A DNA stretch of 64,000 bases from an uncultured Nitrososphaeraceae archaeon. GTDB taxonomy: Archaea; Thermoproteota; Nitrososphaeria; Nitrososphaerales; Nitrososphaeraceae. A program made the position numbers and the translations under genes. Under the pieces are notes generated by a model, which did no database searches, was not told the origin of the DNA, and saw nothing but the letters and a program-made list of their open reading frames with translations. Below, in pieces: positions 2,984 through 55,531 of this stretch. How positions within the stretch are numbered: position 1 is the first letter of the stretch; every line of letters starts with the position of its first letter. Where the stretch lies: NCBI GenBank assembly GCA_963729045.1, contig CAVSMN010000012.1, forward strand, positions 320,001 to 384,000. The letters are read 5' to 3'.

Positions 2984-4165
2984 CTATGCTACTATATCTG
3001 CTATTGCCTCACCACTCGAAGTGCTGTTTGTGGCATTGTTTATTGCTCCTGTATCATCAATCGATTGTAGGCCCTTTTCGGCAAGTACTTCATTCAACAA
3101 GGTCGTATCATATATGCCTGAAAGATTCGGTCGATCTTTTCCCTTCTCTATAAATCCAAGGTCATATGCGTCATTTGCACTCTTAAAGAGGGTTAACTTC
3201 AATGGATCATATGTGAGTTCTAGATTACTGTAGGCCTTATCTAGTACACTTTCTGATATCTCTTGACCAGTAAGTTTCTTTAATTGAGTATTAAATTCCT
3301 TTGCTGCTGCTGCTGTATCGTTGTTTATCTTTAGTGTTTCATCTACGTGAGCTTCAAGTAATTTCTTTATGATTTCAGGATTCTTTTCAAGATAGTCTGT
3401 TCTGACAATTAAGTTGCCAGTTACAAACTTACCATCTGGCCATAAACTTTTCTCATCAACGAATACTTTACCGCCTGCTTCTTGTACTAATCTTGTTGCC
3501 CAAGGTTCAGGTACCCATGCTCCATCAATTTCACCTTTCAAGAATACTGTTAGTATATCCGCATTTGCAATAGGTAACACTGTTACGTTTCCACCATTTT
3601 CTACAGTATTGAAACCATTATCAATCAAGTATTTTCTCAAGGCCACATCTTGTGTGTTACCTAATTGAGGGGATGCAAATTTCTTTCCACCTAGGTCGTT
3701 GACTGTTTCTATCCCTGAATCATTTCTAACTATGAATGAGGCTCCACCACTAGATGCACCAGAAATTACTCTAAGATCTTTGCCTCCTGTAAGAAGATAT
3801 CCGTTTATAGCAGGGTTAGGACCAATGTAAGTAGCATCAATTCTATCTGCTAATAACGATTCAATTGCAGATGGGCCAGCATTAAATCTAAATGTTTCAA
3901 CAGTAACATTATCTCCTAACGTCTTCTGAAAATCTCCATTATTTAATCCAATTACGGCTTGTGAATGAGTGATATTTGGAAAGTACCCAATTCTCAAAGT
4001 CTTTTTCTCATCACCTAATGATTGTGCACTGGCAATCGATATGGGTGCTGATATCAATGCTATTGTGGTAATAATCATTGTAAAGACCAAGATAATTTGT
4101 CTTCCTCTATTATCAAAATTCTTTGGAATCTTGATACCTACTTTTTCTGACTTATTAATCATCAT
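2984..4165 (-). CDS. ssuA: ABC transporter substrate-binding protein, aliphatic sulfonate (SsuA/TauA/NMT1-like), copy 1
   Basis: RIGYFPNITHSQA, FNAGPSAIE, ASPQLGNTQDVALR and AWVPEPW motifs; N-terminal anchor. Confidence 0.85.
   Translation of the reverse strand: MMINKSEKVGIKIPKNFDNRGRQIILVFTMIITTIALISAPISIASAQSLGDEKKTLRIGYFPNITHSQAVIGLNNGDFQKTLGDNVTVETFRFNAGPSAIESLLADRIDATYIGPNPAINGYLLTGGKDLRVISGASSGGASFIVRNDSGIETVNDLGGKKFASPQLGNTQDVALRKYLIDNGFNTVENGGNVTVLPIANADILTVFLKGEIDGAWVPEPWATRLVQEAGGKVFVDEKSLWPDGKFVTGNLIVRTDYLEKNPEIIKKLLEAHVDETLKINNDTAAAAKEFNTQLKKLTGQEISESVLDKAYSNLELTYDPLKLTLFKSANDAYDLGFIEKGKDRPNLSGIYDTTLLNEVLAEKGLQSIDDTGAINNATNSTSSGEAIADIVA
3575..3769. repeat. 195-bp tract identical to 5179-5373
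   Basis: Base-by-base match from taacactgttac to ccagaaattac. Confidence 0.95.
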
Positions 4166-4221: not shown

Positions 4222-4242
4222 ATTGTGCAGTTTAAGCATATA
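4222..4242. promoter_or_regulatory. Candidate palindromic operator (GC-N7-GC) upstream of ssuA copy 1
   Basis: attgtgcag-ttt-aagcatata; resembles the sites at 8245, 9710, 9729 and 12826. Confidence 0.35.
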
Positions 4243-4611
4243 TTCTGCGCCGACCGAAAAGTTATAATATTATGCCATCTATACCCAGGGACACAATTGT
4301 GCTCTATCATTATGTTGATAATTTGGTACAAGTTGTTGATTGAAGGCAAGCGATATGATCTGCCTATAATTAAATTTGAAAGTATCGTGACTCAAAATCA
4401 AAAAATCTAAAGGAGCGCGATTTTGAAAAATGATGTTAGACTTTTTGCCTATCATAATATTAATGGGTAGAAAATACATACTTGATTTTACGAAATTGTG
4501 CTACCTGATCCTTTTCATCCCGGCATATTTGATAGAATCCACCTCCGTTTACTAACAAATGGTTTAATTTACTAATGATTAGTAAATTAAACAACAAACC
4601 ATCATTACTGA

Positions 4612-5769
4612 TTATGGAACGGGGCTCAGACCTTTGCTCTTCAGTACTTCGTTTAAGAGACCAAGATCATAAATACTTGATAAATCTATTTGACGACTGC
4701 TTCCTAGATTTATATATCCCAAGTCGTTAGCGTCCTCAGCTATCTTGTTAAGCGATGCTGAGAGGGGATCGTAGGTAAATTCTATCCTTGATAATGCATC
4801 TTTTATTTGGTCCTCTGGATAAGTCTTACCAGTAATGTTCTTTAGCCCTTCATTAAATGCAACCGTTAATTCTTGAATATTTTTTTCATCCGTTTCAGTA
4901 TTATTAGTTTTTGATAACTTTTGATTTATCCATAATGTTTCATTGATATGTGCTTCAAGCAGTTTCTTTATAATTTCGGGATTATCTTTAAGATAATCCG
5001 TTCTAGCTAAAATATTGGCTGTCACGAATTTACCTTCTGGAGGCCAGAGCTCCCTTTCGTCGACCAAGATAAATCCTTTTCCTTGTTCTTTTAGAATGGC
5101 ACCTAAAGGTTCAGGTACCCATGCCCCGTCAATCTCTTTATTTAGAAACAATTTGATTATGTCCGCGGGTTTTGCTGCTAACACTGTTACGTTTCCACCA
5201 TTTTCTACAGTATTGAAACCATTATCAATCAAGTATTTTCTCAAGGCCACATCTTGTGTGTTACCTAATTGAGGGGATGCAAATTTCTTTCCACCTAGGT
5301 CGTTGACTGTTTCTATCCCTGAATCATTTCTAACTATGAATGAGGCTCCACCACTAGATGCACCAGAAATTACCCGTAAACCCTCTCCTCCCGAAACAAT
5401 GTAACCATTAATAGTAGGGTTAGGACCAACATAAGCTACATCAATCTGTCCTGCATATAGAGCTTCAATTGCCGAGGGACCGGTTGTAAAAACAAACTCT
5501 TTTACTGAGATGTTACCTAAATTCTTTTCATTTTCTATTATTTGTCTAAAATCTCCATTGTTTAGGCCAATTATGGCTTGAGCATGATTCAAATTTGGAA
5601 AATACCCAATTTTTAAAGAATCAGCCTTCGCATTTACGGTTTGACTGGTAGATCCAGTTGTACTATTATCCTGACCCATCAATAAAGACCAATAGAAATT
5701 ATAATTAGAAGATATGATAACTACGATAATTATGGCAAATGAAATACCCAACTTTAATTTTGAATCCAT
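4612..5769 (-). CDS. ssuA: ABC transporter substrate-binding protein (SsuA-like), copy 2
   Basis: Paralog of 2984-4165 with the same motifs. Confidence 0.85.
   Translation of the reverse strand: MDSKLKLGISFAIIIVVIISSNYNFYWSLLMGQDNSTTGSTSQTVNAKADSLKIGYFPNLNHAQAIIGLNNGDFRQIIENEKNLGNISVKEFVFTTGPSAIEALYAGQIDVAYVGPNPTINGYIVSGGEGLRVISGASSGGASFIVRNDSGIETVNDLGGKKFASPQLGNTQDVALRKYLIDNGFNTVENGGNVTVLAAKPADIIKLFLNKEIDGAWVPEPLGAILKEQGKGFILVDERELWPPEGKFVTANILARTDYLKDNPEIIKKLLEAHINETLWINQKLSKTNNTETDEKNIQELTVAFNEGLKNITGKTYPEDQIKDALSRIEFTYDPLSASLNKIAEDANDLGYINLGSSRQIDLSSIYDLGLLNEVLKSKGLSPVP
5179..5373. repeat. 195-bp tract identical to 3575-3769
   Basis: Direct sequence identity. Confidence 0.95.
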
Positions 5770-5965
5770 GTTATTTTTTTTGTAAATGGGATGTATTAAT
5801 AATCAGAAATAGGCAAAAAATGTATATTACACGTGGTTTTAGCAATAATGTTGTAATACTGACTCACAAAGGGTTATTTTCAGTATTTCAACTCCTTTAT
5901 CCTAACTTATCACGGTTCAATAAAAGTATGTGTAGGAGAAAAAGTGATGTTAGGTCAAAATGAAA

Positions 5966-6904
5966 TCATTTATTTTCAATGTCCTGCTCTTGTCTTAATC
6001 CCCATTTCTCTCTTACCCTTTCTTCTAGTTTTGCAAAGATTACTTTATCAAATAACATTCCTAATGCGAAAATAGTAATCATAGATGCTATTATCTGATC
6101 CATCAGTTGGAATTCTCTACCTACTAGTAGTATGTGTCCTATCCCTACCGCAGCAGCCATAAGTATTTCCGCTCCAATCAAAGCGTGCCAAGCAAATGAC
6201 CACGCTTGTTTTATTCCTATTATTAATGCAGGAGTGGCTGCTGGTATCATTAAGTATCTAAATAATGAGAAACCTTTAGCTCCCATATTTCTTGCAGCCT
6301 TTAGATATATGGGAGGTATGTTTCTTATTCCACTGTAAGCAGACATCATGACTGAAAATACTGAACTCATTATGACTACAAATAATATTCCTATATCATT
6401 TAGACCGATAAGCAGGATAGCAAATGGAACCCAAGCAACACTCGGAAAAGACTGTAATCCTACCGCAAAAGAACTCATTGTTTTTCCAAAGCCACTAAAT
6501 CTTACCATTGCAAGTCCCACACAAACCCCGATTCCTATTGATGCAGCAAATCCAATCAAGAGCCTATAAAGAGTCATTCCTATGCTTATCGTCAAAGTGC
6601 TATCTAGAGTTAGGTCATAAAACGATTCTACTACCATTATAGGAGATGGTAGTGATACTTTTGGCCAAATGCCACTTAAATACGCGAGTTGCCATAGGCC
6701 AATAAAAACTGCAATAAATAAAATGGTATTTGAGAATTCATCCAACCTGATTTTCTTTTTCAAGGGAATCTTGCTTTTATTTGGGCTTTTTTCGTCTAAA
6801 GAAATGATTTCTGATTCTTCGATGGAGTGCGATTCATCTAAATCATTTTCAATATCTTCCTTATTTTTCCGTTTATTTTCGTCATCTTCAGGAGCCCTGT
6901 ACAA
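5966..6904 (-). CDS. ssuC: ABC transporter permease (SsuC/TauC-like)
   Basis: LPSP motif, EAA-like loop 'KAARNMGAKG', 'AW..LIGAE'; multiple TM helices. Confidence 0.9.
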   Translation of the reverse strand: MYRAPEDDENKRKNKEDIENDLDESHSIEESEIISLDEKSPNKSKIPLKKKIRLDEFSNTILFIAVFIGLWQLAYLSGIWPKVSLPSPIMVVESFYDLTLDSTLTISIGMTLYRLLIGFAASIGIGVCVGLAMVRFSGFGKTMSSFAVGLQSFPSVAWVPFAILLIGLNDIGILFVVIMSSVFSVMMSAYSGIRNIPPIYLKAARNMGAKGFSLFRYLMIPAATPALIIGIKQAWSFAWHALIGAEILMAAAVGIGHILLVGREFQLMDQIIASMITIFALGMLFDKVIFAKLEERVREKWGLRQEQDIENK

Positions 6905-7250
6905 AGAAATCCTGTTTATTATTAGGCCTCCCGTATATCAATTTTCTTAGGCTTTTTACAAATTTAACTTCTTCAATGCATAATCACTATCACAACTTAC
7001 CTAACTTGAAATCGACCACTCAATTAGATTAGTTATCAGTGGACCATCAAATAAGTTATCAACTTTTTTCGTTTCTTGCCATTATTTGAAAATTATTTTA
7101 AGAAAAATCGATTCTGATATTGGACATTCGTTCAAAATTTTATAAAACTGTAATAAAGAAAACAAAATCAAAATAATATCCTGAAGGAATATTGTAAGAA
7201 CAATGATACAATAATGATTTCGTTATGTGTCTTAAGTTAGCCTGTAATTA

Positions 7251-8237
7251 TTATATCCATTCTGCCTTGACCAAATTGTAGACTTTTTTTCTTGTGTCGT
7301 CTAAGCTATTCTTTTCAATTATCAAACCTTGTTCTTTGAGTTCTTCGACTGAAGCTTGAACTGTTCTTCGTGGTAGATTGGTAACATAGATCAATTCGCT
7401 TTGATCAATAGGGTGCTTACTCCTAATTATGTAGTGAATAAATTTTGTGGCAGGACTACCTTCAGGACCTTTCTTTACTGGAGTAATGCTGAAGCTTGCC
7501 TTAGATAGGAAACCTCTCCTTTGGGACTCTATAGATAATACATTATTGAGTTTTATCTCACCCATATTTACTCGCTGTCCAAATTCTGCTACTAATACTG
7601 CTTGCTGAATCTCTAACGGAGCCTCAAAAATTATGCTGTTAGGATTAATTTTTGAAGTAATAGCGGAAAGTAAATTCCATTTGATATCTCCTTTTTCATC
7701 ATAGATACCCACGTTGTACCCCAAATTTGCTTCCAGGACTATTTTTTCTTGGCTAATCTCTAGAATTTCATTCATCTTCTTTATTGTTTCATCAACCGAT
7801 AGTTGCCTTCTGGGATCTTTGTGCCCGATTTTCCATTGAACCCTCATATCATACGAATCAACTATTTTTAGGATCTTCTTTTTTTCCTCAAAGGCAAGAT
7901 GAATACTATTTTCACTTATTTCAATTATATCAAACCCAATTGTTTTTGCACTCTCCATAAATTTTTCAAACACTTTTTCACGTATCGCGTATTCGGTCAA
8001 CGTACTCCCTGTAGAAACTAGAACATTTGATTGATGGTAAAAATCAATTCTATTAATGAGACTTTGTTGTTTTAGAAGAAGAGGAAATGCTCCATATATC
8101 TTGACCATGTCAATATAAGGAGATATAGTTTCAAAATTCTCTTTGTCAAGACCTTGAAATTTGTCTATAATGTATGTAATACCATCATGACGGGGTTTTT
8201 TATGATCTATTCTGTCCTCAATCAGGGTTTCTAGCAT
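7251..8237 (-). CDS. comA: ComA (phosphosulfolactate synthase)-like TIM barrel fused to a C-terminal winged HTH
   Basis: KPRHDGITYIIDK, GSTLTE, IIEISE, IFEAP and FG.RVN family motifs; C-terminal ~65 aa wHTH (..QSEL....LPRRTVQASVEELKEQGLI..DTRKKVY). Start moved to MLETLIE at 8237. Confidence 0.8.
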   Translation of the reverse strand: MLETLIEDRIDHKKPRHDGITYIIDKFQGLDKENFETISPYIDMVKIYGAFPLLLKQQSLINRIDFYHQSNVLVSTGSTLTEYAIREKVFEKFMESAKTIGFDIIEISENSIHLAFEEKKKILKIVDSYDMRVQWKIGHKDPRRQLSVDETIKKMNEILEISQEKIVLEANLGYNVGIYDEKGDIKWNLLSAITSKINPNSIIFEAPLEIQQAVLVAEFGQRVNMGEIKLNNVLSIESQRRGFLSKASFSITPVKKGPEGSPATKFIHYIIRSKHPIDQSELIYVTNLPRRTVQASVEELKEQGLIIEKNSLDDTRKKVYNLVKAEWI

Positions 8238-8244
8238 GAATGGA

Positions 8245-8265
8245 TGTATGCAGAATTTACATATA
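8245..8265. promoter_or_regulatory. Candidate operator immediately upstream of comA-HTH
   Basis: tgtatgcag-aat-ttacatata, an imperfect palindrome lying between an AT-rich TATA-like box and the start codon. Confidence 0.4.
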
Positions 8266-8798
8266 ATTAAATTGATATATGCATTTTTGAAAGTATACAC
8301 TAGACAAGAAGCATTAATTTTCGCATAAGATGTCAAATTGACACATTATCAAAGTTACTTCTTTTATCACTTCATTTCACTTCAATTTAGTCTATTATTA
8401 TTTAATGCAGCTAATTCTAGGTTCCATGACTCATCCTATCAAGTGGGTTAATTCTGACTATGTATGTTTTATTATGTTTTAACAGATTATTTGGGCTTAT
8501 GTCTAGTAGTAACATACCGACTGTAACTAATATTCCATTACAAGAACTAAACCGGGTTTCTAATTGATACCGTAGTTGACTCCTTTTTTTTTAAATGGGC
8601 TGACAATAATACCTTGAAAAGCATCCATTTTCAAGGATTGTTATTAATCAGTAAAAATTATGCGAAATATTGTATTAAAATAAAAACAAAATAAACGGGG
8701 GAAAAATAGTATTGAGACAAATAGATATTTTGCTGCCTTTGATAATGACTTCTGTTTTACCACATTACCCTGATTTTGTAGTATTAGAATCCTTAACA

Positions 8799-9671
8799 TT
8801 AATTTACTTTGGAAATAATTGTGCGGTCTAGATTTTGATTAATGGTTTCAAACTCTGTGATAGGACCATTTACAAATAAGTCATTTGATTCAGAAATAAT
8901 TTCTCGGGTAATTGATTCCACAAGAGGATGATCAATACTGCGTGGTCTCGGTATATTCACCACAACTTGCTTTTTTATATTCGCCAATTTGGGAGACATA
9001 ACAATAACTCTGTCACCCAATGCCACTGCCTCATGAATGTTATGAGTTACAAACAAAATAGTCTTTTTGGTTTCCTGGTGAATCCTCAATAGATGTGAAT
9101 AAAGCATTTTTCTAGTTTGAACATCTAAAGCAGCGAAAGGTTCATCCATTAGCAAAATCTTAGGATCCAACGCCAATGCTCTGGCGATCGCAACTCTTTG
9201 TTTCATTCCTCCAGATAGCTGGTGAATATAGGCATGGGTAAAATTGGTCAATTGAATCATATCAATTAATTTCATGACTTTTTCTTCCCTCTTATCTTTT
9301 GGAATTTTTGCAATTTTTAAACCAAATTCTATATTTTCATATACTGTTAACCAGGGAAATAAAGCTCCTTCCTGAAAAACTACCACCCGATCCGTGCTTG
9401 GAGATAGAGCAATAGGTTTATCATCAACAAGTATCTCACCATCAAATTTATTATCTAGACCAGCAACCAAATTAAGTAACGTACTTTTTCCACACCCAGA
9501 AGGACCTACAATAGTAACAAACTCTCCATTTTTGATGTTTAAACTAAGTTTATTGATAACCGTATGTTTGGAATGAATCTTGTTCTTTTTTTCAGTATAT
9601 CCTTTAGAAATGTTTTCGAGTTTTAAAATTGAACTATCAATAGATTGAATAGGATTTGCTAAACTAGACAT
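8799..9671 (-). CDS. ssuB: ABC transporter ATP-binding protein (SsuB/TauB/NrtD-like)
   Basis: GPSGCGKST, LSGGMKQR, LLMDEPFAALD, VTH motifs. Confidence 0.92.
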   Translation of the reverse strand: MSSLANPIQSIDSSILKLENISKGYTEKKNKIHSKHTVINKLSLNIKNGEFVTIVGPSGCGKSTLLNLVAGLDNKFDGEILVDDKPIALSPSTDRVVVFQEGALFPWLTVYENIEFGLKIAKIPKDKREEKVMKLIDMIQLTNFTHAYIHQLSGGMKQRVAIARALALDPKILLMDEPFAALDVQTRKMLYSHLLRIHQETKKTILFVTHNIHEAVALGDRVIVMSPKLANIKKQVVVNIPRPRSIDHPLVESITREIISESNDLFVNGPITEFETINQNLDRTIISKVN

Positions 9672-9709
9672 AATTATTACATAAACAGAAAATTATATAA
9701 TTAAATCCC

Positions 9710-9749
9710 TATACGCAACATTCGCCGATATGTGCCAGACTTGCACACT
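9710..9749. promoter_or_regulatory. Two tandem candidate operators upstream of ssuB
   Basis: tatacgcaa-cat-tcgccgata and tatgtgcca-gac-ttgcacact. Confidence 0.4.
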
Positions 9750-10397
9750 TAATGATGATTATGCGTCTTTTAGGAAAAAAATAAAAAAATTGTATAGTCA
9801 ATATTTGGTATATATCTTGGTTTATGCCATACATACAATAGATTATTCCTAAATCGATGCCATATTTATTTATCTTACAAAAAGGTAGTGATAGCGAAGG
9901 AATTTAAAATCGGTTATTTGAGATTATTTTAGAGTCAAGTCTAAATTTACGATTTGGGATATTTTTGTCGTTAATGTGGTTTACAAAATTGTTTGTTAAT
10001 CATCAATAATTTAAAGATCGATAGGTAATTCACTTGTCAATATTTACCCCCTTTATTAAATCAAATCAAATGATGACAAGGATTCAGACTTCAGACCCTG
10101 TTGTATATTGGAATTTGGTATAAACAATTTCTAAATAAGTTCCTATATGCAAGATCTGCATCTATTAGCTAAATCTGGCATATTATTAAACGGATCCAAA
10201 TATACTAATAACATTATATTTTATTAGGAATGATACTTTTTATGGATATATTCATATAAACCCGTTACTTTTTTGTATTTTTTTTATAAAGAGAGTTTAA
10301 TAACTATGAAATACCAAGTATTGATGATTGGCAGTCCCATCCAATCACAAAGATACTCCACGAAGAAACACAAAAGCAGTACGTATTCATTATAGTA

Positions 10398-10458
10398 GTG
10401 ATTCAGGTAATACCTAAATCGATGCCAGCACATCGTTAAGGTTATCAACCTGAATCAC
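10398..10458. repeat. Long imperfect inverted repeat (hairpin)
   Basis: gtgattcaggt...acctgaatcac outer arms; cgatg/catcg inner arms. Confidence 0.7.
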
Positions 10459-10923
10459 AATATCATTAGTATAAAAAGTAGGATACCCAACAAGGTTTAT
10501 GGACAGTCTATCATATTAAGAAATTGAAGTATTCTCTAAAAGTGACTAAATGATGCCATCTCTCTCTGTAGCTTAATAAAAAACCATAGCAAATACTAAA
10601 AAAGAGTGATTTTGACTATTTGGAATAAAAACCATCAAGAGCTTCGGTTATATTTTACATACATCTGTCTGTTTAGCTTTTCTACATATTACGGACGAAA
10701 CTGACTTTTAACACAAATCTACATGCGAATTGTGGATACCAGATTTAATAACCCTTTTGAGACCGGGCAACTGTCACAATAAGGGTCTCTGATCTTCAGT
10801 AAACTGCTACGTGAGAATCATATGTATCTATTCAAAAACCAATGCTTCAATAAATAAATTTAACAGGATAACAAAATTTTCTTTGCTTCTAATTGTAATT
10901 TCAATAGGGACATTTCTTCTCTA

Positions 10924-11853
10924 TCAGTTCTCACATTTTTTTATAGATTTTGCTGGTACGCCTGCAACAATGTCTTCATCTACAATATCATAAATAACAG
11001 AACTGCCTGAACCCACAATAACTTGATCGCCTATTTTTATCTTATTTTTTATCGTACTATTTAGCCCTAACCAACAATTATTGCCAATGATAGTACTACC
11101 ACCTACTATAGTTCCAGCTGTTAGCTCGGTATTTTTTCCAATATTGACATTATGGGCTATATGGCATAAAGCATCAATTTTGGTTCCTTGTCCTATAATC
11201 GTGTCAGAGAGAGATCCTCGTGCGATAGAGCAATTTGCAAATATTTCTACATCGTTTTCTATCACCACTTTACCATAATGAGGGAATTTTTCTAGATCTA
11301 AAGTATCACATGCTCTTTCAAATGCAAATCCATCAGAACCAATGGTTGTATTTGGTTGAATAGAACAATTATCTCCTACTTTACAATTTTGCAAATTTGC
11401 TTTTGATTCTATTATAGTATTATTACCAATAGAACAATTATCACCGATAACTACGTAGTCACCAATATAACAATCCCTTCCTATCTTTGCTGAATCGGCT
11501 ATAACAGAACTTTTGGAAATACCAACCTTAGGCAGAGCATGGGTAATACGCTTTGCAAGTCTTGTAAATTCAAGTCTAGGATTATCAACAAATATCAATA
11601 GTTGTCCGTCCTTGTGATTTGGATATACCAGCCCCTCCATACTTTTTTTACAAAGTATCACACCAGCGTTTGATTGTGAAATAGAGAGCATGCCTCTGTA
11701 TTCCTCAGATGAACAAAATGAAACATACCAATAATTTCCATTGTATAAAGAGGGCAAACTTTTTGTCAATTTTGACTTTATTGGTGAATCCTGGCCTTCT
11801 AACGTATAACCTGAATCAGTAAGGTGCTGCAATAATGATTCAACGGTCCACAA
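10924..11853 (-). CDS. LpxD-like hexapeptide-repeat N-acyltransferase
   Basis: DNPRLEF, IGSDGFAF, GKVVIENDVEIFAN, TKIDALCHIAHNV and VAGVPAK motifs; the C-terminus may be frameshifted. Confidence 0.8.
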   Translation of the reverse strand: MWTVESLLQHLTDSGYTLEGQDSPIKSKLTKSLPSLYNGNYWYVSFCSSEEYRGMLSISQSNAGVILCKKSMEGLVYPNHKDGQLLIFVDNPRLEFTRLAKRITHALPKVGISKSSVIADSAKIGRDCYIGDYVVIGDNCSIGNNTIIESKANLQNCKVGDNCSIQPNTTIGSDGFAFERACDTLDLEKFPHYGKVVIENDVEIFANCSIARGSLSDTIIGQGTKIDALCHIAHNVNIGKNTELTAGTIVGGSTIIGNNCWLGLNSTIKNKIKIGDQVIVGSGSSVIYDIVDEDIVAGVPAKSIKKCEN

Positions 11854-11919
11854 TTGTACAATTCATCCTCATCTTTGTTCCCTATTTTTGCTTCGAATAA
11901 AACTTGTAATTTGAGTAAA

Positions 11920-12141
11920 CTAAAAAGAAAATCTTATCCATCTAATTTCTTTTAGTTTGCAAAAGGGACAAAGCATTTTGTGACTGTCTAAATAAATACT
12001 TCCCGTTGTTTCAGAAAAAGAGGCATTCCAAGAACATTGGTTGCATCTCAAAGTATATTTGAAAGTCGAAGGCTTCAAATACATGTCCAGATTATCCTTT
12101 TCAATTCTTAATCCAACGGAATGATTTAGTTGCAAACTCAT
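11920..12141 (-). CDS. Small zinc-ribbon protein
   Basis: CNQC...CPFC. Confidence 0.55.
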   Translation of the reverse strand: MSLQLNHSVGLRIEKDNLDMYLKPSTFKYTLRCNQCSWNASFSETTGSIYLDSHKMLCPFCKLKEIRWIRFSF

Positions 12142-12413
12142 GAGTAGTTATTACAATAATTGTAATAAAAGGAATGTTGTATATGATATATTGGAATAGT
12201 ATACGCAAATAATTCACATTCTATAAGCTTTAGTTTTGGAATTTATACAAAGCGTATAATAATACAAACACAAGTGACCCAGTGCATCTGTTACTATTAA
12301 TTAAGGAGATCCTTTCAGAATTCTTATAAATAATATGCTGTTTGTGGTTAATTAATCCATGTAAATAAGAAAATAGAAAAATTTGAAAGAGTATAAAAAT
12401 AATCGGTCTTTAC

Positions 12414-12764
12414 TTACCTCATCATGTTTCTACATTCTTGGGCACATTTCTTACACATTTCAGCACATTCTTTACATGCTTCCATTTTGTTACCCATTTT
12501 TTCACATTCCATTGCACATGCGTCACATATGGTAGCACACATTTCACACATTTGCTTTGAGTATTCGCTTCCACGAGCCATCATCATTGCTGCCATTGTA
12601 CACATCGAAGCACAGTCTCTGCACATCATCATACATCGGCCCATCATACCGGCCATTTCAGTGTTGGACATACATGCAGTACAACAGGCTTCGCACATCA
12701 TTGCGCATTCATTGCAAGTGTCAATACAAGTTTGGTTTTTTTGATTAATAAGAGTAGTGTTCAT
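12414..12764 (-). CDS. Four-helix-bundle copper storage protein (Csp3/DUF326-like)
   Basis: Regular CxxxC/CxxC pattern, 21 Cys in 116 aa, no signal peptide. Confidence 0.88.
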   Translation of the reverse strand: MNTTLINQKNQTCIDTCNECAMMCEACCTACMSNTEMAGMMGRCMMMCRDCASMCTMAAMMMARGSEYSKQMCEMCATICDACAMECEKMGNKMEACKECAEMCKKCAQECRNMMR

Positions 12765-12825
12765 ACCATTAATAAGTTAAAAATATTATATAAACTTATC
12801 TAAAAAATATGAGAAAAACGTAAAA

Positions 12826-12846
12826 TATATGCAAATATTGCGTATA
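12826..12846. promoter_or_regulatory. Near-perfect palindrome upstream of the Csp gene
   Basis: tatatgcaa-ata-ttgcgtata. Confidence 0.5.
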
Positions 12847-20543: not shown

Positions 20544-21448
20544 CTAATTTGAAGCCAAATTTGATAATTGGTCAAGGATTTGTCGAGCCTTAGTAGCGCT
20601 TTTTTCCTTGTCTTTTATTTCAAGCATAAGGTCGTAACTATAATCAATTGTAGAAGATAAAAAGTTCTTGAACTTCATTACATCCAAAGTATTAGCATGT
20701 TTTCCTTTCCTGAAATTTGGTTCTTGATTACTATAGTCAATCATCAGTACCCCATCTCTGTTTTTCTCCCACGTATTGTCTGCAGAACTTATGGCATCTT
20801 GTACCGATACGGCCATCATTCTTACATTCGTGGTGAAATACATCCAACAAGACGGGAACATTCGTTTTGTCGTGTATTTTTAAGCAATCATTTAAACTAA
20901 AACGATAATCATCATTTTCGATTGCCATTCTCGACCTAACCTCATCAGACAAGAGTGTATTATAGTTTTTGATGAACCTATCCAATGAGGAGATTTTGTC
21001 ATCATAAGTTCCTCCAACGTGGATCTGAATTTTTGCAGTGTTATCTAGCTTCATTGCGTTGAGGAGGGCAGTTTGGTAATTGATTTCTCTTATTCCGTTT
21101 TTCTACAACTTCATTATTTGGTGAATTCAATATGACAAATTGGTCTGGGTGCATGGAAATTCTGATTTTCTTTTCTTTAGCAATTTGACCGATATAAAAC
21201 AAATCTTTCTTGAAATAATTTTCCCAATCAAATTTGCATATTGGGTGTGAAGCGAATGGAATTATGTCAGAACTGATTCTAAAAAACAGGAAATCATGTT
21301 GAATATTATAGTCCAAGATATCTTTGAGTACCTCAAGATTATAACTGACCGCCTTGATTAATTTTTCTTCAGAGTACGAAGATATTCTAAACGTGGAAAT
21401 AGTTTTTTTTCCTAACGATTGGTTAATGCACGGATATCCTATTTTCAT
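20544..21448 (-). CDS. uvsE: UV damage repair endonuclease UvsE/UVDE (split across three frames)
   Basis: MKIGYPCIN, FFRISSDIIPFASHP, SMHPDQF, IHVGG, IENDD, LDVFHH, DLMLEIKDKE. Confidence 0.9.
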
Positions 21449-37892: not shown

Positions 37893-39328
37893 CTATTTCA
37901 CAATCTGATTTCTCGCATACTGATTGATTTCGTCTTTAGCATCATCATATCCTCTCTCAAGTAATAGTTTAATTGTTCCAGTAGAGAAATCAAAAGTTTT
38001 ATTTGAAATAGTATATTCATCATTCTTGCGGTCTATGCGTAATATATCATCTATTTCTGGTCGTCCTTCAAGTAAGTCTGAATATTTGCGAATCTTTGAG
38101 AACATACCGTGGGATCGCGTATTCTGGTTCAAGATATCGTTAATAATTTCGTCTTTTAGTCCATTCTCCTTTGCCGCTTTTATTAATTTACTTATCAAGG
38201 TAATATAATCTGAAATTGCTAACATCGCAAGTTCTTCTGTCTTCGTCCGATCAGAGAAGGTTATGTCAGTATTCCTGTTAATAACCCCGTCCCGATCAGT
38301 AGGAATCTCTGCCTGTTTCGTGGGATGTAGATTGATAATACATATTCCTAGTGCTGGTATCTTGTTCCTTAATCCTCTTACTTTCCACCAATAGAGCCTG
38401 TGTAGGAGAACTAGTTGCACTAATGGAGTATTGGTCATAAGTCCGCCGTCCCAAAAATGTCGCATCTCTTTTCTGTAGCCGATCCCATCGCTGTTATTTG
38501 TCGGCCCGCTGATAAAAAGAGAATCAACTTCTATTTTAGTAAAATCAAAATTGACTGGAAAGGATCCACTTGCCATAACATGATCTGATGTAATACCCTT
38601 ATCATAGTGAACAACATGTTCAAATCCGAATTCCTTGCCGTTCTGATTTATGAATCTTCCATACTCTGTTTTTCGTGAACCATCTTCTGTTGGATAGCTG
38701 TCAAATGTGACTGGTATACCATCAGCAACGTCAACTGCTACTAGTATGAGCCTTGGCTGATCTTCTTCTTGATTGGTAGCAATTGGAAATTTTACAAATC
38801 GCTCCAAACTTCTTCGTAAAGGTTCATTATTATAGCGGTACCATGTATTATTAGAATCAAAAAACCTGCTGTCGTGTGCAGGCAAATGAGGATAAAAGAC
38901 ATTGGTACTCCGTATATCGCAAATTCTTGGGCTGAATAGTATCTTCTTGCAGCTTCTCCAGACGCAATCTTTCCATTAATTGCATGCCAATAATCCCACC
39001 AAGGTTTAAAAAATGGATTAGATCCAACTAATGATTCCTTAGAAAGGTAATTCCAGAAATCGATAAGTCTCTCTGCTGATCCCTCATAAGTCTGATTTTC
39101 TACGACATAACTTACGAGAACAGCAGAGTTGATAGCACCTATTGAAGTTCCTGCAACGATATTAAATATAGGCCGTCCCTTTTTACCTTCATCTGTATCC
39201 CTTTTAGAGAAGAATTCATACATTGCCTTGTACACTCCAGCTTCATAAGCACCAAGAGACCCTCCTCCTTGAAGTACTAAGGCTCTCTCCCTATCTGGAA
39301 CACCCGTTTGCTTCTTAATACTAGACAT
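37893..39328 (-). CDS. Patatin-like phospholipase (frameshift near 38895)
   Basis: LQGGGSLGAYEAG, GTSIG, FWDGG. Confidence 0.88.
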
Positions 39329-40126
39329 TGTTATAATAGCAAACTCATAAAAGATAAAAGATTTTATGTTAAAAAGAGACACGGTCTCTTCTCATTTAAT
39401 GGACAACCTAACCTGGACGGGGTGGACACCTGAGATGAGTCTGAATTGTTACTAACTAAGAGCTCGTCCTAAAAACTCTATAACACTTTCAAACTTGCAT
39501 GGCATTCCTCTCGTGTGATTTGACCAATCTGACTGCAAAGGCCTTAGATGTAAAGCTTCGAAGATTTAATGAAAATATCGTTATAGGTCTTCATTCCAAT
39601 CAGGCTTTGCTTGATATGTTTGATGACTAGGAGACGACGCTTAGGGAAGATATGTCCAAAATCTTCATTATGGCTGCAGATCGATTTCTAATGCTACCAT
39701 GTTCCTGTTCATGTATCGAAGGATTACAATGTGGAGCAACAAGGTCTAAAAGAGCGGATGGCCGCAGTAAACGGATTATTTCCGAAGAAATCAGAAAAGG
39801 AGAAAAAATCTTGCGGCAATTATACCTCACTTTCGTCATAATGATCACCAAATCAATTAATCTTCCTACATAGAAGTCAAGCATTCATTCTGATTATTTT
39901 AATCTTAATTTATTTCGAAATTAAATAGGAAAGTGAAATGTAAATATCAGTTCTATTTGAGCCTCCCTACTCAGTTGGACTCGTCATTGATCCTAATAAT
40001 CAGAAAACCAAGATCCATAAACATACTCACGCATTCAATCATCGATTCATCGCAATGTTGCCATCATTTTTTTGTCACTCTTGACTCTTACTGAAAGTGA
40101 GAATATTCATATACATGGACTACTTT

Positions 40127-45280: not shown

Positions 45281-46108
45281 TCAAGAGTCTATAAATTTTT
45301 CAATAATTTCATAAAATTCAACTGGCTTTTCAACATACGGAGTATGACCGCAGTCTTCCATTATCAATGTCTTCACATTTGGCATTTGCTTAAAATATTC
45401 TATATTTTCTACTGGTATGGTCGTGTCATTTCTTCCCCAGATAACCAACGTGGGTACAACTATTTCCACCAATCTTTTTCGTAAAGTTTGATCTTTGCGC
45501 ATTGCAAGTAAGGTTGAAATGAGCGAATACTTGGCATTAGGGAGTTTCATTCTATTCATATAGTCCTTAACTGTTCCAACATCGACGACATATTCTCGGT
45601 TATTGGCCATCATTTCAAACGCCCTATGAACATTTTCAGAAGTTGGATATAAGCCAGAGAAAATATACTGACTCAAAACATATGTTGGTTTTTCTAATGT
45701 TCCGGCAGGAGAAACTAAAATGATTTTCTCAAAGAAATCTCTATGAGTTAAACTGAACTCCAATGCCAACTGTCCTCCAAATGAGGAGCCAATTATTACT
45801 GGATTTTGAATTTGCATTTTCTCAAAGAAAACCTCTAAGAATTTAATAAAAAATTCTATTGTATATTCTATGAGGGGTTTTTCACTATATCCGAATCCTA
45901 CGAGATCAGGAATCACTACGTTGTATTTTTTTAATAAAGGCCATAAATCAGCCCATCTTTCTGCAGATGCACCTAACCCGTGTAGCAAGACGATGGTTTT
46001 CTTTGATTCTGGATGATCAAACTTAATAAATCTTATTTTGTAACCTAGTATTTCAATAAAATCCATACTTTGATTACTTTTTTTGTGTTGATTAAATACC
46101 AGGCTCAA
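45281..46108 (-). CDS. Alpha/beta hydrolase
   Basis: LLHGLG, DLVGFGYS, GSSFGG, WGRND, CGHTP. Confidence 0.9.
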   Translation of the reverse strand: MSLVFNQHKKSNQSMDFIEILGYKIRFIKFDHPESKKTIVLLHGLGASAERWADLWPLLKKYNVVIPDLVGFGYSEKPLIEYTIEFFIKFLEVFFEKMQIQNPVIIGSSFGGQLALEFSLTHRDFFEKIILVSPAGTLEKPTYVLSQYIFSGLYPTSENVHRAFEMMANNREYVVDVGTVKDYMNRMKLPNAKYSLISTLLAMRKDQTLRKRLVEIVVPTLVIWGRNDTTIPVENIEYFKQMPNVKTLIMEDCGHTPYVEKPVEFYEIIEKFIDS

Positions 46109-46419
46109 TTGTTGAATAATGTTCTATAATTGATATGTTTAATATATATAATTTTTAAAAGAAACATTAATTTTTATAAGGAGAATACAGGATAAGACTC
46201 CATCAAATTATTTTCTATATAATTTTAGAAATTCTAACTAATAGCTATTCTTTACGCATGAAATAGAAATGTAGTTCATATTTTTTGTGTATTTGTGTAG
46301 TGTAGTGCAATTAAGATAAGATAATGTATTTTACATACATACTTTTGCTTACTTACTTACATACTTGTTTGCTTGTATTTGTTTTTTATAGTTACTTGTC
46401 GGTTGTAATTTTTTAATTA

Positions 46420-49375
<2,956 letters not shown>

Positions 49376-50227
49376 TCCAGTAGTTATAAATTAATTAATA
49401 AATTAATTAATTAATTAATTAATTACTTTTTTATTTGGAGTTTCTTTCTTTGTCCTTTGGATCTTTTGTTTGTTATTAGTTATCTAGTTAGTTAGTTAGT
49501 TAGTTAGTTCCACTTGTGGTAGAAAAGTCTAATTCAATTTGGTTGGTATTGGTATTTCGTATGTATGTTTATATATTAAATCTGTTTGCACTACAACCAG
49601 TTACACATAATATTTTACTACAATTCACTATTCCATTATTACGCGAATAGTTATTGTTGTTACTTCTTCGATTATATGTAATTGATAATTTGACGGAGTT
49701 TTCCTTTACATGATGATCATTGTAAACTCACATTTACTACATCAACTTCATTCTTTATCTTCTACTCCTCATTTACATGAGACAAAGAATTGCATCCGAT
49801 ACTATATGCTGATTTTAATTGGAATGATCAGATAGATGATTTATGATTTTGTTTAGAATATCTATTATAATATTTACACAGATTACGCCAATAGAACTCT
49901 AACAAATATGAATATTTTTTGTATAAAAATACAACATACTAATCAGTTTTTCAAACCGTATGAAAAATGAAGGAATTGATTGATCAGTTTTGATTTGATT
50001 GCACTCCCTTCTTTATCTACCATCCTACTCTACTGCTATACTATCTTATCATCGTCCATTCGTAATGGACAGGACAGATAAGTGTGTATAGTATGGATTG
50101 ATAGATATGATAGATAGATTTAGGGATTTTATTTTATTTTATTAGTATAATTATTGTAAAGTCTCGCAGATTAGAAAGAGCACAAGGCCCTTTCTAACCC
50201 ACTACCACTACTACAATATAATAACTA

Positions 50228-51696
<1,469 letters not shown>

Positions 51697-52807
51697 CAAA
51701 TAAAGTAAATAATGGCTGTAGAATTATTATTTACTTTATTATAAATCGTCGGTTGATTCTCACATAAACAAACTAACTTTTTTTAGGGTTTGTTTGTTTA
51801 TTTTATATATAAATATCGTCCATTTCTCTTCTTCTTCTTCTGTTATCTTCTTCCCCATCTCAGGAAAGAAATAGATTGAAAAATTGAAAGGACGTTTATT
51901 GAGTTTCTTTCTTTATTGTTATTCTATTTCAGATTAACAATAAAGAGAAAGAGTACGATCGAAAAACTAGATTTGTATGTTGTTTTTTTTTACAAATAAT
52001 AAAATCACACATTAGCTAGATTTGTTCTATAGGATCATCTTTAATGCAATTATAATAGCATTATAGTGATCTATACTTCGATATCATCTATCTGATCATT
52101 CCCATGTCAGATTCAATCTATCAGGTCAGCACTGATTTTTTTGATCGAATCTCCAATACGTTATGATGAATCTATTTAGATGTATTTTAATGCTCGATCC
52201 TTATAGGATCGATCTCATACCGAAATACTCATGATTCTATGATTACTGTAAAGAGCGCACCTGGAGGTCTGTAAATCACATTGTGGCACTTGCCAACTTC
52301 ATTACCGACGCCGCCTTTTGTCTTGGATGCGTTCACAAGTGTTTAGTTAAATGATAATATTAACTTTAGGGTTGCAAGATTTATCAAAAAGATTTTTCCA
52401 TGTACAATTCAATCCCAATCACACTTACTGCATCAAAATCAGTACCCTGACATCTATACACGAGCTAAATATAGCAGCCATGATTGTGTACAAGAACCAC
52501 CATGTAGAGTTAATCATGTCTTCATTTGGTATAACTCAAAAAAAATATTTACCAAATTAAACTAGTTAGTTTCGTTATAATTGAAATTTAGAATTTGAGC
52601 TAAGAAATCGGGATAAAGAGCTGGATTCCTTGGGAAGTATGATTTATCCTCTTTAAAATATCTGAGAATATCTTATTACTCGAAACTATTTTATCCCAAA
52701 CATCATACGGAATTCGAAAATCTTCAAAATGTTATCATGACAAATTTGATATGCTAAATTGATATCCAACAAATTAATTTTTAAAAGGCAGAATAAAATA
52801 AACAATA

Positions 52808-55531
52808 GTGCAGCAAGTAAATTTGGCATCAGATAAGAAAGATGAATATTATTCAAAGAAACTACCCGAAGATATACCGTCCTTGCTTCTTTCATCCTTC
52901 TATGTAGGGGAAAAAAAATCTGTTTTCCTAAAGTTTTATAATCCTGCTGACTCACAAATTTATTTTTGGAGCGAGTATTTTATAGGCAATACTAGTTCAA
53001 AGAAGCATCAACCTTACTGTTTTGTTAAAAAAAAATTTGAAGTTGAAGCAAAGAGTGTTGTAGATCAAGAATCAACCAAATTCCAAATTCAAGAAGTGAA
53101 AAAAGTAGATGATATTGTAGATGAAGAAATAGAGGTACTCAAAATTTTGGCACCCGACCCTCTGTCAATCGGGGGTACAGATAATAGTTTTAGGGAGAGA
53201 GTTACTTCTTGGGAAGCAGATATAAAGTATCATGAAAGCTATCTCTATGATTTAGGACTAATTCCGGGGGCTTTTTATAAAAGAATCGGCAATAACTTGG
53301 TATTTCACGAATTCCCAATGCCAAAAAAGGTAGATCAATATTTAGAGAGCTTGTTTGCCTCTAACAAATTCCAGAACAATTTCAGTAGCAATGAGTATGA
53401 CAAGTTTTTGCTGAAATGGTCACGTTTACTGAATCAACCCATACCTGATATAAAGAGAATTGCTATAGACATTGAAGTTGATTCTGAGGAGGGAAGAATG
53501 CCAACTGCACGAGACCATGATCGCCTAATAACGGCAATCGGCTTGTCTGCATCTGATGGGTTCAAAAAAGTTTATGTTCTAAAAAGGGAGGAGAATATAG
53601 ATCCAACAACATTAGACCCCAAGCATAGTACTTTGTAACTCTGAAAAAGAGATGCTTTTGTTAGCTTTTGATGTATTAAGTAAATATCCGGTTGTGTTAA
53701 CATACAATGGCGATGATTTTGATATGCCTTATTTATATGCAAGGTCTCAGGACCCTGCGATTGATCCTGCAGATAGGAAGCCAATTGATAAAGAACAGGT
53801 GCCTATTCTGGTAAAAAGAGAATCATTTATGAAAAGAGGAATACAAGCAGATCCAGTCACCATCAAGTCAGGAATTCATATTGATCTTTTTAGGACATTT
53901 CAGAATAAATCCGTGCAAAACTATGCCTTTAGTCATAAATATTCAGAATTCACTTTGAGAGCCATATGTGAGGCACTGTTAGAGGATACAAAAATCGAAT
54001 TTGAGGGAAGTATTAGCGATCTTTCCATTAGAAAAACTTGCAGAATATTGTCTTAAAGATGCTGATCTAACTTTCAGATTGAGCGCCTTTAACGATAATT
54101 TGCTCATGAAACTAATAATAATTATTTCGAGAATCTCTAGAATGTCTATTGAAGATATTACAAGATTCGGGGTGAATCAATGGATTCGGTCTTTAATGTT
54201 TTTTGAACATCGACAACAGAACATACTTATACCTAGAAGAGATGAGTTACTTCAAAAAGGATCTTCATCAACCACTGCAATAATTAAAGAGAAAAAATAT
54301 CGAGGTGGATTAGTCGTTGAACCCGAACTTGGAATTCACTTTAACGTAGTTGTGGTGGATTTTGCAAGTTTGTATCCTAGCATTATTAAGGTACACAATT
54401 TGTCTTATGAAACAGTAAATTGTCCTCACAACAAGTGCAAAGATGACCCGCTTAATCATATCGAGGGAACAACCCATTGGATATGTAGGAAGAAAAGGGG
54501 GATGACTTCAATTCTAATTGGAACTTTACGTGATTTACGGGTAAATTACTATAAACATCTGTCCAAAGATACCAGTCTTGGTAAAGATGATAAACAACTT
54601 TATGGTGTTGTGAGCCAAGCAATTAAGGTAATTTTAAATGCCACATACGGAGTCATGGGAGCAGAGATATTTCCACTCTATTGCCTGCCTGTCGCAGAGG
54701 CTACTGCCGCCATTGGGAGAACTACTACGACCAGAACGATAAACAAATGCGATGAGAATCATATCAAGGTAATATATGGAGATACCGACTCGTTATTTTT
54801 GAAAAATCCTAGTCCTGATAGCCTGAATACGATTTCTAATTGGGCCAAATCTGAACTGGGAGTTGATTTGGAAATAGACAAGCGTTATCGGTATGTTGTA
54901 TTTAGTGATCTAAAGAAAAATTATTTGGGTGTACTTGAAGACGGGACTGTCGATGTCAAGGGGTTAACTGGAAAAAAATCTCATACCCCACCGTTTATTA
55001 GAAACGCATTTTATGAGATACTAAATGTGTTGAAAGGATATCTTTACGGAGAAGGACTTTACCAATGCTAAAACTAGAATAAAAAAAATAGTTCATTCTC
55101 TTGCAGAAGACCTTGAGAAGAAAAGTATTCCTTTATCTGATTTAAGTTTTAATGTAATGATAAATAAGTCTCCAGAAAAATACGGGATCAAATTTCAAGA
55201 AAATAGAAATCATCGCGCCATTTCTTTAGATGGTAAAGATAAGAATATAGAAAGCATAAAGGGAATCCCTCAGCATATAAAGGCCGCAAAACAACTTGTC
55301 GAATTAGGACGACAACTCAAAGCTGGCGATATTATTTCCTATGTTAAAACAAGGACTATTGAAGGAGTAAAACCCGTTGAATTAGCTAACAAAATGGATA
55401 TAGATACTGAGAAATATCTTGATACAATGGAATCTACCTTCGATCAAATCTTATCATCACTAAATTTGAATTTTAAATCTATAATTGGAAAGCCTAGGCA
55501 ATCCAATCTTGATGAGTTGTTTTGGACTTGA
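52808..55531 (+). CDS. polB: Family B DNA polymerase (three apparent frameshifts)
   Basis: AIDIEV, YNGDDFD, DFASLYPSII, K..LNATYG, YGDTDS. Confidence 0.95.

Follow-up and report, generated by a model that had tools for sequence, protein, structure and literature searches.

The locus described here raises the question of what a protein named as an enzyme of coenzyme M biosynthesis does when it ends in a DNA-binding domain and lies between two transporter genes. The gene (7251..8237, minus strand; 328 amino acids plus stop) is carried by an uncultured Nitrososphaeraceae archaeon and was analysed within a 64,000-nucleotide stretch of contig CAVSMN010000012.1 (positions 320,001 to 384,000), called the window below, whose own numbering is used for all coordinates. 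Its product joins a (beta/alpha)8 barrel of the phosphosulfolactate synthase (ComA) family to a C-terminal winged helix-turn-helix (wHTH). A first-pass annotation had read this protein as a probable pseudoenzyme repurposed as a one-component regulator of organosulfonate uptake. From our analysis, the fusion protein is probably a ligand-sensing, autoregulated, local transcription factor of the one-component type that is tied to sulfur metabolism.

A ComA-type barrel fused to a MarR-type winged helix

The start codon was placed at the ATG at 8237 rather than at the TTG at 8336, because a conserved TATA box and the palindrome described below fall inside the longer TTG frame and because homologues of 328 amino acids share the same Met. 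Residues 12-244 (7506..8204, minus strand) matched the Pfam family ComA (PF02679) with an E value of 1.4e-63 and 215 bits against a cut-off of 25.2, and the fusion protein matched the phosphosulfolactate synthase of Methanocaldococcus jannaschii (1QWG) at an E value of 5.9e-32. The AlphaFold2 model of the full protein, built from a 65-sequence alignment, contains an eight-stranded barrel and has a mean predicted local distance difference test (pLDDT) score of 90. The comparison of the modelled barrel with 1QWG by Foldseek resulted in an E value of 1e-19, a template modelling (TM) score of 0.88 by target length and a root-mean-square deviation (rmsd) of 2.7 A at 29% identity. The linker after the altered RRGFL segment (residues 245-261; 7455..7505, minus strand) was delimited by its low AlphaFold2 confidence, with pLDDT values of 62-66 in the blocks covering residues 241-260 and below 50 at residues 252-255.

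The remaining domain (residues 262-322; 7272..7454, minus strand) was classified as a MarR-type wHTH from the AlphaFold2 model, Foldseek and a profile search. Modelled alone as 76 amino acids (pLDDT 87), the C-terminal domain forms three helices followed by a two-strand wing. Its best Foldseek matches were DNA-binding domains of the MarR family (TM score 0.77-0.81, rmsd 1.1-1.8 A), several of which were solved on DNA, and its profile matched the SlyA/MarR structure 4MNU at an E value of 5e-7. The Pfam family MarR_2 was matched at 3.4e-4 in the whole protein, and the domain alone scored 24.6 bits against a gathering cut-off of 27. All 18 domain copies matched MarR_2, each under the gathering cut-off, and the recognition helix LPRRTxQ is invariant in all 18. 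Together with the barrel match, these results bear out the earlier description of a ComA-family barrel followed by a clear wHTH. Only 59-74 columns were aligned by Foldseek, out of MarR-family targets of 124-178 residues, and the flanking dimerisation helices are absent. The fusion protein is therefore not a full member of the MarR family, and sensing and oligomerisation would have to come from the ComA barrel.

The first-pass annotation had considered that the fusion might be a frameshift artefact, and the distribution of the protein shows that it is not. A match at an E value of at most 0.001 was found in all 121 genomes of the same family, representing 18 of 18 genera (the tally includes three unpublished genomes, G077, G035 and G099, on which nothing else reported here depends), and most of the genomes have a full-length match (query residues 1-328 or 2-328) without stops. 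Some genomes, from several genera, gave only a weak best match at the level of the wHTH, near 1e-4. A word-index search at the same threshold resulted in 916 proteins; most of the 120 listed have 328-333 amino acids, and among the matches listed every functional source name was 'phosphosulfolactate synthase' (Nitrosocosmicus, Nitrososphaera and Nitrososphaeraceae). Outside the family, one of 300 sampled genomes of the phylum had a match, an unfused one, and no match was found in the 43 genomes of the sister family in the same order. In some relatives, short open frames of 59-81 amino acids match the wHTH part only (residues 249-328; for example G022:C117:9661-9897), and these may be stand-alone wHTH genes or contig-end fragments.

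Contigs matching parts of the coding sequence were found in all four of four RNA libraries from soil or rhizosphere, and some of these contigs are mismatch-free over 150-250 nt. Contigs of these libraries also match parts of the ATPase gene, the Csp3 gene and neighbouring genes described below, and they leave the intergenic spacers uncovered. Because such libraries can contain DNA, and because the contigs give neither ends nor strand, they lend weak support to expression only.

An operator-like palindrome at the locus

The upstream regions of 21 loci were compared, namely the window and 20 relatives' loci, from 16 genomes in nine genera (relatives' loci carry L numbers). They have a common block directly before the start codon, and within it lies a 19-bp palindrome, ATrTGCA-N5-TGCAyAT. 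A proximal palindrome with at least 11 of the 14 consensus positions, located 27-34 nt before the start, was found in 16 of the 21 loci: seven of seven in the window's genus, seven of seven in a second genus, and one in each of two more genera; it is lacking in the loci of the remaining five.

A symmetrised weight matrix was made from these 16 own-promoter sites only and run over the whole 2.85-Mb genome. As a result, three matches reached at least 22 bits, at window positions 8246, 10145 and 12827, all within 4.6 kb of the gene (the site at 8246 is itself a training site of the matrix), and the next best match scored 17.8 bits. Three mononucleotide shuffles of the genome gave a mean of 0 matches with a score of at least 22 bits and a mean of 0.67 with at least 20 bits. 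Independently of the matrix scores, the consensus with at most two mismatches occurred seven times in the window against 1.06 expected, and none of 100 dinucleotide-preserving shuffles reached seven. All seven matches lie within 4223-12845, each in the spacer before a gene, except one in an empty spacer.

The sites also keep a characteristic distance from genes. Of the non-training matches of at least 13 bits in the 21 loci, 12 of 25 have an open reading frame (ORF) start 66-78 nt from the site centre, which holds for 1.2% of random positions and 2.6% of random intergenic positions. A filter on score and distance left nine sites genome-wide, the strongest being those of the Csp3 gene, the regulator gene itself, the ATPase gene and a 73-amino-acid ORF. 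In the distance class of 62-80 nt, sites of at least 14 bits occur genome-wide only at the four local genes, to which the regulator's own site is added.

The own-promoter site, O1 (8246..8264; 22.0 bits), is centred 18 nt before the start, and across loci the corresponding centres lie 18-25 nt before it. A TATA-like AT-rich box, TTTAATTATAT, is found about 25-38 nt before the start in both the ATPase promoter and the own promoter; by sequence, O1 is placed just downstream of this box, and the ATPase site precedes the box by about 40 nt. A weaker second own-promoter site (8328..8346; 10.7 bits) lies 82 bp upstream of O1. Such a second site is kept 82-83 bp upstream in the window's genus, and equivalent blocks occur at -109 to -111 in L017, L019, L020 and L021.

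Among the neighbouring genes, the ATP-binding cassette (ABC) transporter ATPase (8799..9671, minus strand; PF00005) has a palindrome at 9730..9748 (15.8 bits), centred 68 nt before its start. The ATPase site recurs at 68 nt in L017 (23.0 bits) and at 77 nt in L032, and in L019 and L020 it was placed by hand at 68-69 nt from starts given by tblastn. A gene for a Csp3-type cytosolic copper-storage protein homologue (DUF326; 12414..12764, minus strand; PF03860) is preceded by the second-best site of the genome (12827..12845; 23.0 bits), centred 72 nt before it, and the homologue in L020 has a perfect palindrome 70 nt before its start (26.1 bits). The 73-amino-acid ORF (11920..12141, minus strand), which carries two CxxC pairs, is zinc-ribbon-like and has homologues in L016, L017 and L019, has a site at 12201..12219 (14.0 bits) centred 69 nt before it; L016 shows the same arrangement, with the site at 69 nt. 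In two genera, a palindrome site is followed at about 68-69 nt by a small ORF with two CxxC pairs (in the window and at L023:9234-9521, minus strand).

Two genes for substrate-binding proteins, SBP1 (4612..5769, minus strand; SsuA-like, NMT1_2) and SBP2 (2984..4165, minus strand; SsuA family, TIGR01728), have weak consensus matches with two mismatches at 5809..5827 and 4223..4241, centred 49 nt and 67 nt before the respective starts; in L031, the site before the binding-protein gene is centred at 70 nt. For the ABC permease gene (5966..6904, minus strand; PF00528), no upstream site was found by the matrix or by the consensus search. The best score in the genome belongs to an orphan site (10145..10163; 23.1 bits) with no gene or known RNA beside it. 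It lies in a 1.25-kb spacer that contains short ORFs only and is 74% identical to that of the closest relative, L016, where the site is conserved (position 12094, 20.3 bits). No Rfam match was found around it, and the site may point to a small gene or RNA that escaped annotation or to the remains of a promoter.

A protein that is an enzyme only was weighed against these data. Its winged helix would then mediate oligomerisation or contacts with proteins, and a different factor, or the architecture of the promoter, would account for the palindrome. Winged helices do have non-DNA roles in some enzymes, and the left half of the palindrome overlaps the AT-rich TATA-like box. However, the basic recognition helix is invariant, the nearest structural matches are DNA-bound MarR-family domains, and the palindrome is rare in the genome, clustered at this locus and kept before this gene in four genera. 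We consider an enzyme without a regulatory role highly improbable.

Altered barrel residues and the age of the fusion

For the barrel, we aligned 83 unfused ComA representatives with 11 members of the ammonia-oxidiser clade and with 19 fused forms that are more distant, and took the columns in which at least 75% of the unfused proteins agree. Of 150 listed representatives, the 102 with a length of 225-360 amino acids (the 83 unfused and 19 fused ones) entered the alignment, and the rest were dropped as fragments or longer fusions. Ten columns that are conserved in 66-82 of the 83 unfused proteins are replaced in the clade. Four of them hold glycine in unfused ComA: column 27 (66/83; F or L in the clade, G27F in this protein), column 50 (68/83; A, G50A), column 78 (82/83; S, G78S) and column 110 (73/83; N, G110N). 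At column 136 (E133 of 1QWG), E in 80/83 is replaced by K (E136K), and at column 171 (R170 of 1QWG), R in 69/83 is replaced by N (R171N). The remaining replacements are found at column 172 (E in 67/83; L or E in the clade, E172L), column 227 (N in 79/83; E, N227E), column 244 (R in 69/83; L or P, R244L) and column 248 (T in 72/83; S or A, T248S). All strings that the first-pass annotation quoted as departures from ComA are present, namely KIYGAF (46-51), EISEN (106-110), KIGHK (136-140), EANLG (169-173), VNMGE (223-227) and RRGFLSKA (240-247). Their counterparts in 1QWG are, in order, KFGWGT, EISDG, EVGKK, EGRESG, VNLAN and RRGL; the 'EARESG' of the first-pass consensus is slightly off.

The derived states are nearly uniform among 113 full-length clade proteins: K136, E227, N110, S78 and F243 occur in all 113, and N171 in 112. 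Derived residues fixed in this way point to a selected new function rather than decay. Residue 139, by comparison, is H in one of the 113 members (this genome only), and K in 71, R in 39 and N in two of the others. By the AlphaFold2 strand assignment, positions 78, 110, 136, 171/172 and 227 are at, or close to, the C-terminal ends of strands 3, 4, 5, 6 and 8, the face on which TIM-barrel (triosephosphate isomerase-type) enzymes carry out their chemistry, and positions 243-248 run into the linker. About 30 conserved columns are kept in the clade, including K14, R16, D25, D43, K46, T79, E82 and E106, as well as K140, E169, E205, Q211, Q212, N224, E237 and R240. The conserved K140 corresponds to Lys137 of ComA, which was proposed as its proton donor.

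The altered residues appear to be younger than the fusion. Among 1.84 billion cluster representatives, 19 more distant fused forms were found, 25-40% identical, some of them under source names from Thermoplasmata (including Thermogymnomonas acidicola), an unclassified Thaumarchaeota metagenome-assembled genome (MAG) and Nitrososphaeraceae. At the three main columns, most of these forms are canonical: E136 is present in 14 of the 19, R171 in 11 and N227 in 13. A scan of species-representative genomes with a six-sequence alignment resulted in 80 fused loci, mostly from soil or peat Thermoplasmata MAGs and a few from Nitrososphaerota MAGs. A FastTree phylogeny with a midpoint root was made from 112 barrel-domain sequences; every fused form falls on one side of it, with the ammonia-oxidiser clade nested among them. 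Under that root, the fusion came first and the residue changes later. Since the fusion appears older than the changes and also exists with canonical residues, the pseudoenzyme state is probably not what made a regulator. The first-pass idea of an enzyme fold repurposed as a one-component regulator has support from the conserved fusion, the MarR-type wHTH, the palindrome on its own and neighbouring promoters and the altered barrel.

The same data bear on whether the protein is enzyme and regulator in one, with a barrel that continues to convert sulfite into phosphosulfolactate or a related sulfonate and a wHTH that couples this flux to transcription. Most pocket residues are retained, the older fused relatives keep the canonical residues, and these relatives often adjoin the sulfite-producing genes sat and cysH, with a short-chain dehydrogenase gene nearly always next to them, which could be a small sulfonate pathway. 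Against this, the canonical E136, R171, N227 and R244 (numbering of this protein) and three glycines are replaced throughout the ammonia-oxidiser clade, and the protein scored 175.3 bits against the NCBIfam equivalog arch_ComA (TIGR03849), under its cut-off of 280. Nor is there a ComA pathway around it. The first-pass annotation had stated that comB to comE are missing from the window; ComB and ComC (PF04029, PF02615) indeed gave no match in the window or in the 87%-complete genome, and the best ComD match (TIGR03845) reached 20 bits against a cut-off of 148, ComE not having been searched for. ComB was likewise not found in four of five tested Thermoplasmata genomes with the canonical fused form. 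A combined enzyme and regulator is unlikely in the window protein; such a state is more likely for the canonical fused relatives. In most Thermoplasmata loci (L042-L107), the short-chain dehydrogenase gene lies directly downstream of the canonical fused gene, and the two may form a two-gene unit.

Further fused paralogues were observed. The second one in the window's genome (G000:C14:17768-18751; L002, L041) is 62% identical and nearer the canonical form at some positions (EVGEN, KVGKK, LEGN), and its recognition helix differs at three residues after RRTVQ. Its flanking ORFs are glyoxalase-like and SRPBCC-like, as named by eye from their translations. A third paralogue from another genus (P0130 and relatives, for example G078:C4:25077-26036) is about 40% identical and much more degenerate, most barrel motifs being eroded (VKIPQSC, WKFNKKN, FDTDIESLQ) and the wHTH intact. 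As judged from its sequence, this paralogue appears to be a clearer case of a pseudoenzyme than the window protein.

Sulfur-gene neighbourhoods, mechanism and meaning

The gene had been placed between ssuB and ssuC in the first-pass annotation. An ABC ATPase gene and an ABC permease gene do flank it on the same strand, but the label 'sulfonate' holds by similarity at the subfamily level only. Against TIGR01728 (SsuA subfamily, cut-off 163.5), SBP2 passes with 198.2 bits and SBP1 fails with 147.5, and the ATPase and permease are under every NCBIfam equivalog cut-off, SsuB and SsuC included. The solved structures nearest to SBP2 are TauA (E value 1.2e-9) and 3e4r, which is titled 'Nitrate transport protein'. 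The 'Sao' names of the best NCBIfam matches, traced to a preprint on selenoprotein-linked ABC systems, were given no weight, as the scores are below the cut-offs. In L017 and L019, a second permease gene lies between the ATPase and regulator genes, and in the window and its closest relative this place is taken by no more than a 560-bp spacer (8238-8798 in the window), which suggests a deletion.

The first-pass annotation had proposed surveying the fused architecture and its synteny, and the survey showed the fusion to be family-wide, with ABC genes of the same type in the fetched stretch (up to 20 kb) of 17 of the 20 relatives' loci; one of the exceptions is at a contig edge. The regulator gene of relatives is often divergent from the binding-protein gene. 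In the older fused loci, the link is to sulfur assimilation genes: 25 of the 80 have a gene for ATP sulfurylase (sat), for adenosine 5'-phosphosulfate or 3'-phosphoadenosine 5'-phosphosulfate reductase (cysH) or of the TauE/SafE family within 8 kb. L101, L102, L105, L113, L115, L119, L120 and L121 have a divergent reductase gene immediately upstream, the ATP sulfurylase gene is directly upstream on the same strand in L046, L047, L050, L052, L053, L070, L071 and L074, and a TauE gene is divergent in L111. A divergent operon of binding protein, ATPase and permease occurs in four of the 80, all in Nitrososphaerota MAGs (L108, L109, L110 and L118). The matrix gave no convincing sites in the Thermoplasmata and deep Nitrososphaerota fused loci, and the operators of these forms, if any, would differ from the palindrome. 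For the claim that the protein controls organosulfonate uptake, the sat, cysH, tauE and ABC neighbours back the sulfur link, but the predicted regulon is wider, as it takes in the Csp3 gene and the zinc-ribbon ORF.

That width leaves room for a regulator of something other than sulfur, whose barrel would sense a copper-related signal or a central metabolite such as phosphoenolpyruvate and whose ABC transporter would carry a cargo other than sulfonate. The strongest target sites precede the Csp3-type gene, which encodes 116 amino acids with 21 Cys and 23 Met (unusually methionine-rich), is single-copy in the genome and matches the Protein Data Bank CSP3 structure 5fig at an E value of 1.3e-14. 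No SsuD or TauD that would use sulfonates was found in the genome (best SsuD match 64 bits against a cut-off of 518; no TauD match), one of the two binding proteins passes the SsuA cut-off while the ATPase and permease pass no equivalog, and the genome's own sat-cysH locus is without a site. On the other side, the fusion protein has no cysteine, which argues against direct Cu(I) sensing through thiolates, and its relatives repeatedly adjoin sat, cysH and tauE. The parent enzyme family binds sulfite, as stated in PMC9457059, and the published copper-limitation promoter motifs of N. viennensis are different sequences. We regard a non-sulfur signal as quite unlikely.

We therefore return to the sulfur-linked transcription factor, for which the following mechanism is proposed. 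The sensor would be the ComA-type TIM barrel, with its fold and most of its pocket kept and about ten conserved positions exchanged, and the output would be the C-terminal MarR-type wHTH. The wHTH domains of an oligomer would bind ATrTGCA-N5-TGCAyAT. At the own promoter, negative autoregulation would be expected, because the site sits between the TATA-like box and the start codon. At the target promoters, the protein may act like an activator from sites that precede the TATA-like box and have their centres about 68-72 nt ahead of the start codon; the putative targets are the ABC ATPase gene, the Csp3-type copper-storage gene, the zinc-ribbon ORF and, weakly, the binding-protein genes. The barrel pocket would bind a small anionic sulfur-related metabolite, the best guess being sulfite or a sulfonate, and this ligand would alter DNA binding by shifting the linker that comes after the altered RRGFL segment. 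The reductase produces sulfite, TauE/SafE exporters are proposed to carry it, and sulfonate cleavage releases it as the sulfur product. It is also a substrate of ComA, according to PMC9457059, and sulfite or a close relative is favoured as the ligand since it is common to all four.

A fuller version can be drawn, in which the barrel has lost catalysis and become a sensor of sulfite or of an organosulfonate, and the protein represses its own gene while activating a small set of local genes for organosulfur import and for a cysteine-rich copper store. It would be part of an older archaeal ComA-wHTH family, so far unrecognised, that governs sulfate assimilation (sat, cysH), sulfite export (tauE) and sulfonate uptake. 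We put this version forward tentatively and consider it possible but doubtful as a whole.

Several points weigh against the proposed transcription factor. Regarding the palindrome, its proximal form occurs in only four of nine genera and is absent or weak in L028-L031 and L033; the genome shuffles were mononucleotide and only three; with three mismatches, the consensus is at chance in the window (15 matches against 12.7 expected); and the promoters of the window had been viewed when the consensus was worded. The P values for distance are overstated, because the 66-78 nt window was chosen post hoc and because the genomes, being related, do not provide independent cases. Neither the SBP1 site nor the SBP2 site reaches 9 bits by the matrix, the sat-cysH locus of the genome has no good site by the score and distance filter, and the second paralogue of the same genome has neither the palindrome nor ABC neighbours. 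The pairing of protein and palindrome is drawn from co-location alone. Regarding the barrel, most pocket residues (K46, E106, K140, E169, E205, Q211, Q212, N224 and R240) are kept, with which catalysis is still possible, and a trimeric ComA, as described in a preprint (bioRxiv 10.1101/2024.10.15.618377), fits awkwardly with a two-fold palindrome. The co-regulation of a sulfonate-type importer and a copper store follows no clear logic, the RNA-library contigs are not proof of transcription, and the mechanism is computational at every step.

The fusion protein was then compared with known systems. ComA of M. jannaschii (1QWG), YitD of B. subtilis (1U83) and XcbB of Xanthobacter share its Pfam family and its (beta/alpha)8 fold. 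It has the pocket residues K46, E106, K140, E169, E205, the QQ pair, N224 and R240 in common with ComA, whereas the extra 85 residues of linker and wHTH, the ten replaced positions, the sub-equivalog score and the lack of a detected ComB or ComC set it apart. The ComA enzyme is a homotrimer with active sites at its subunit interfaces. MarR-family factors bind palindromic operators that often overlap their own promoters. The wHTH core superposes on those of MarR and SlyA (the 3BPV MarR structure and the MepR-DNA and SlyA-DNA complexes), and the putative operator, about 19 bp long, is palindromic; unlike these factors, the window protein has only the 60-70-residue core, without the helices that form the MarR dimer and ligand pocket. 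PutA (a TIM-barrel dehydrogenase with a DNA-binding domain), BirA and NadR are enzyme-derived one-component regulators. By analogy with these, an enzyme fold joined to a DNA-binding domain may let a metabolite pocket control transcription, although the window protein comes from another enzyme family, has its DNA-binding domain at the C-terminus, is archaeal and has an altered pocket.

CysB and Cbl of E. coli and CymR of Bacillus control sulfonate or taurine ABC importers by sulfur status; unlike the window protein, they belong to unrelated families (LysR and Rrf2), and no archaeal counterpart of them was found in the literature searched. Plant HSA32 is a homotrimeric TIM-barrel ComA homologue whose molecular function is described as unclear in the same preprint (bioRxiv 10.1101/2024.10.15.618377). 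HSA32 has a non-enzymatic role and is, like the window protein, a ComA-family member with a function other than coenzyme M synthesis, but it has no DNA-binding domain and acts in heat-stress memory through HSP101.

Two further observations concern the rest of the window. Four genes appear broken up, each into two or three frames that adjoin or overlap: UvdE (20740-21448), a patatin-like gene (37896-39382), a family-B DNA polymerase gene (52808-55068) and a threonyl-tRNA synthetase gene (56579-58508). These could be assembly frameshift errors, pseudogenes or programmed events. The G+C content rises to 0.43-0.48 at about 46000-52000, against about 0.33 elsewhere, and this stretch is probably a ribosomal RNA operon.

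The findings matter for annotation first. Hundreds of proteins from Nitrososphaeraceae and soil Thermoplasmata are named as a coenzyme M enzyme where the rest of the pathway is lacking, so that metabolic reconstructions may wrongly infer sulfonate or coenzyme M biosynthesis in these organisms. The locus also provides a testable package, consisting of a candidate 19-bp operator with coordinates, a candidate regulon of four to six genes and a short list of candidate ligands, and the series from canonical to altered pockets within one fused family is useful for asking how an enzyme becomes a sensor. The host is an ammonia oxidiser, as the first-pass annotation had assumed, since archaeal amoA is present in its genome (2.85 Mb, 22 contigs, 87% complete). 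To our knowledge, little is known about gene regulation in ammonia-oxidising archaea, and the literature searched, in which subscription journals are mostly outside coverage, described neither this fusion nor the palindrome, nor any sulfur regulator of such archaea. If the proposed role is true, a transcription factor for sulfur status would, with the fusion protein, be proposed for the first time in archaeal ammonia oxidisers.

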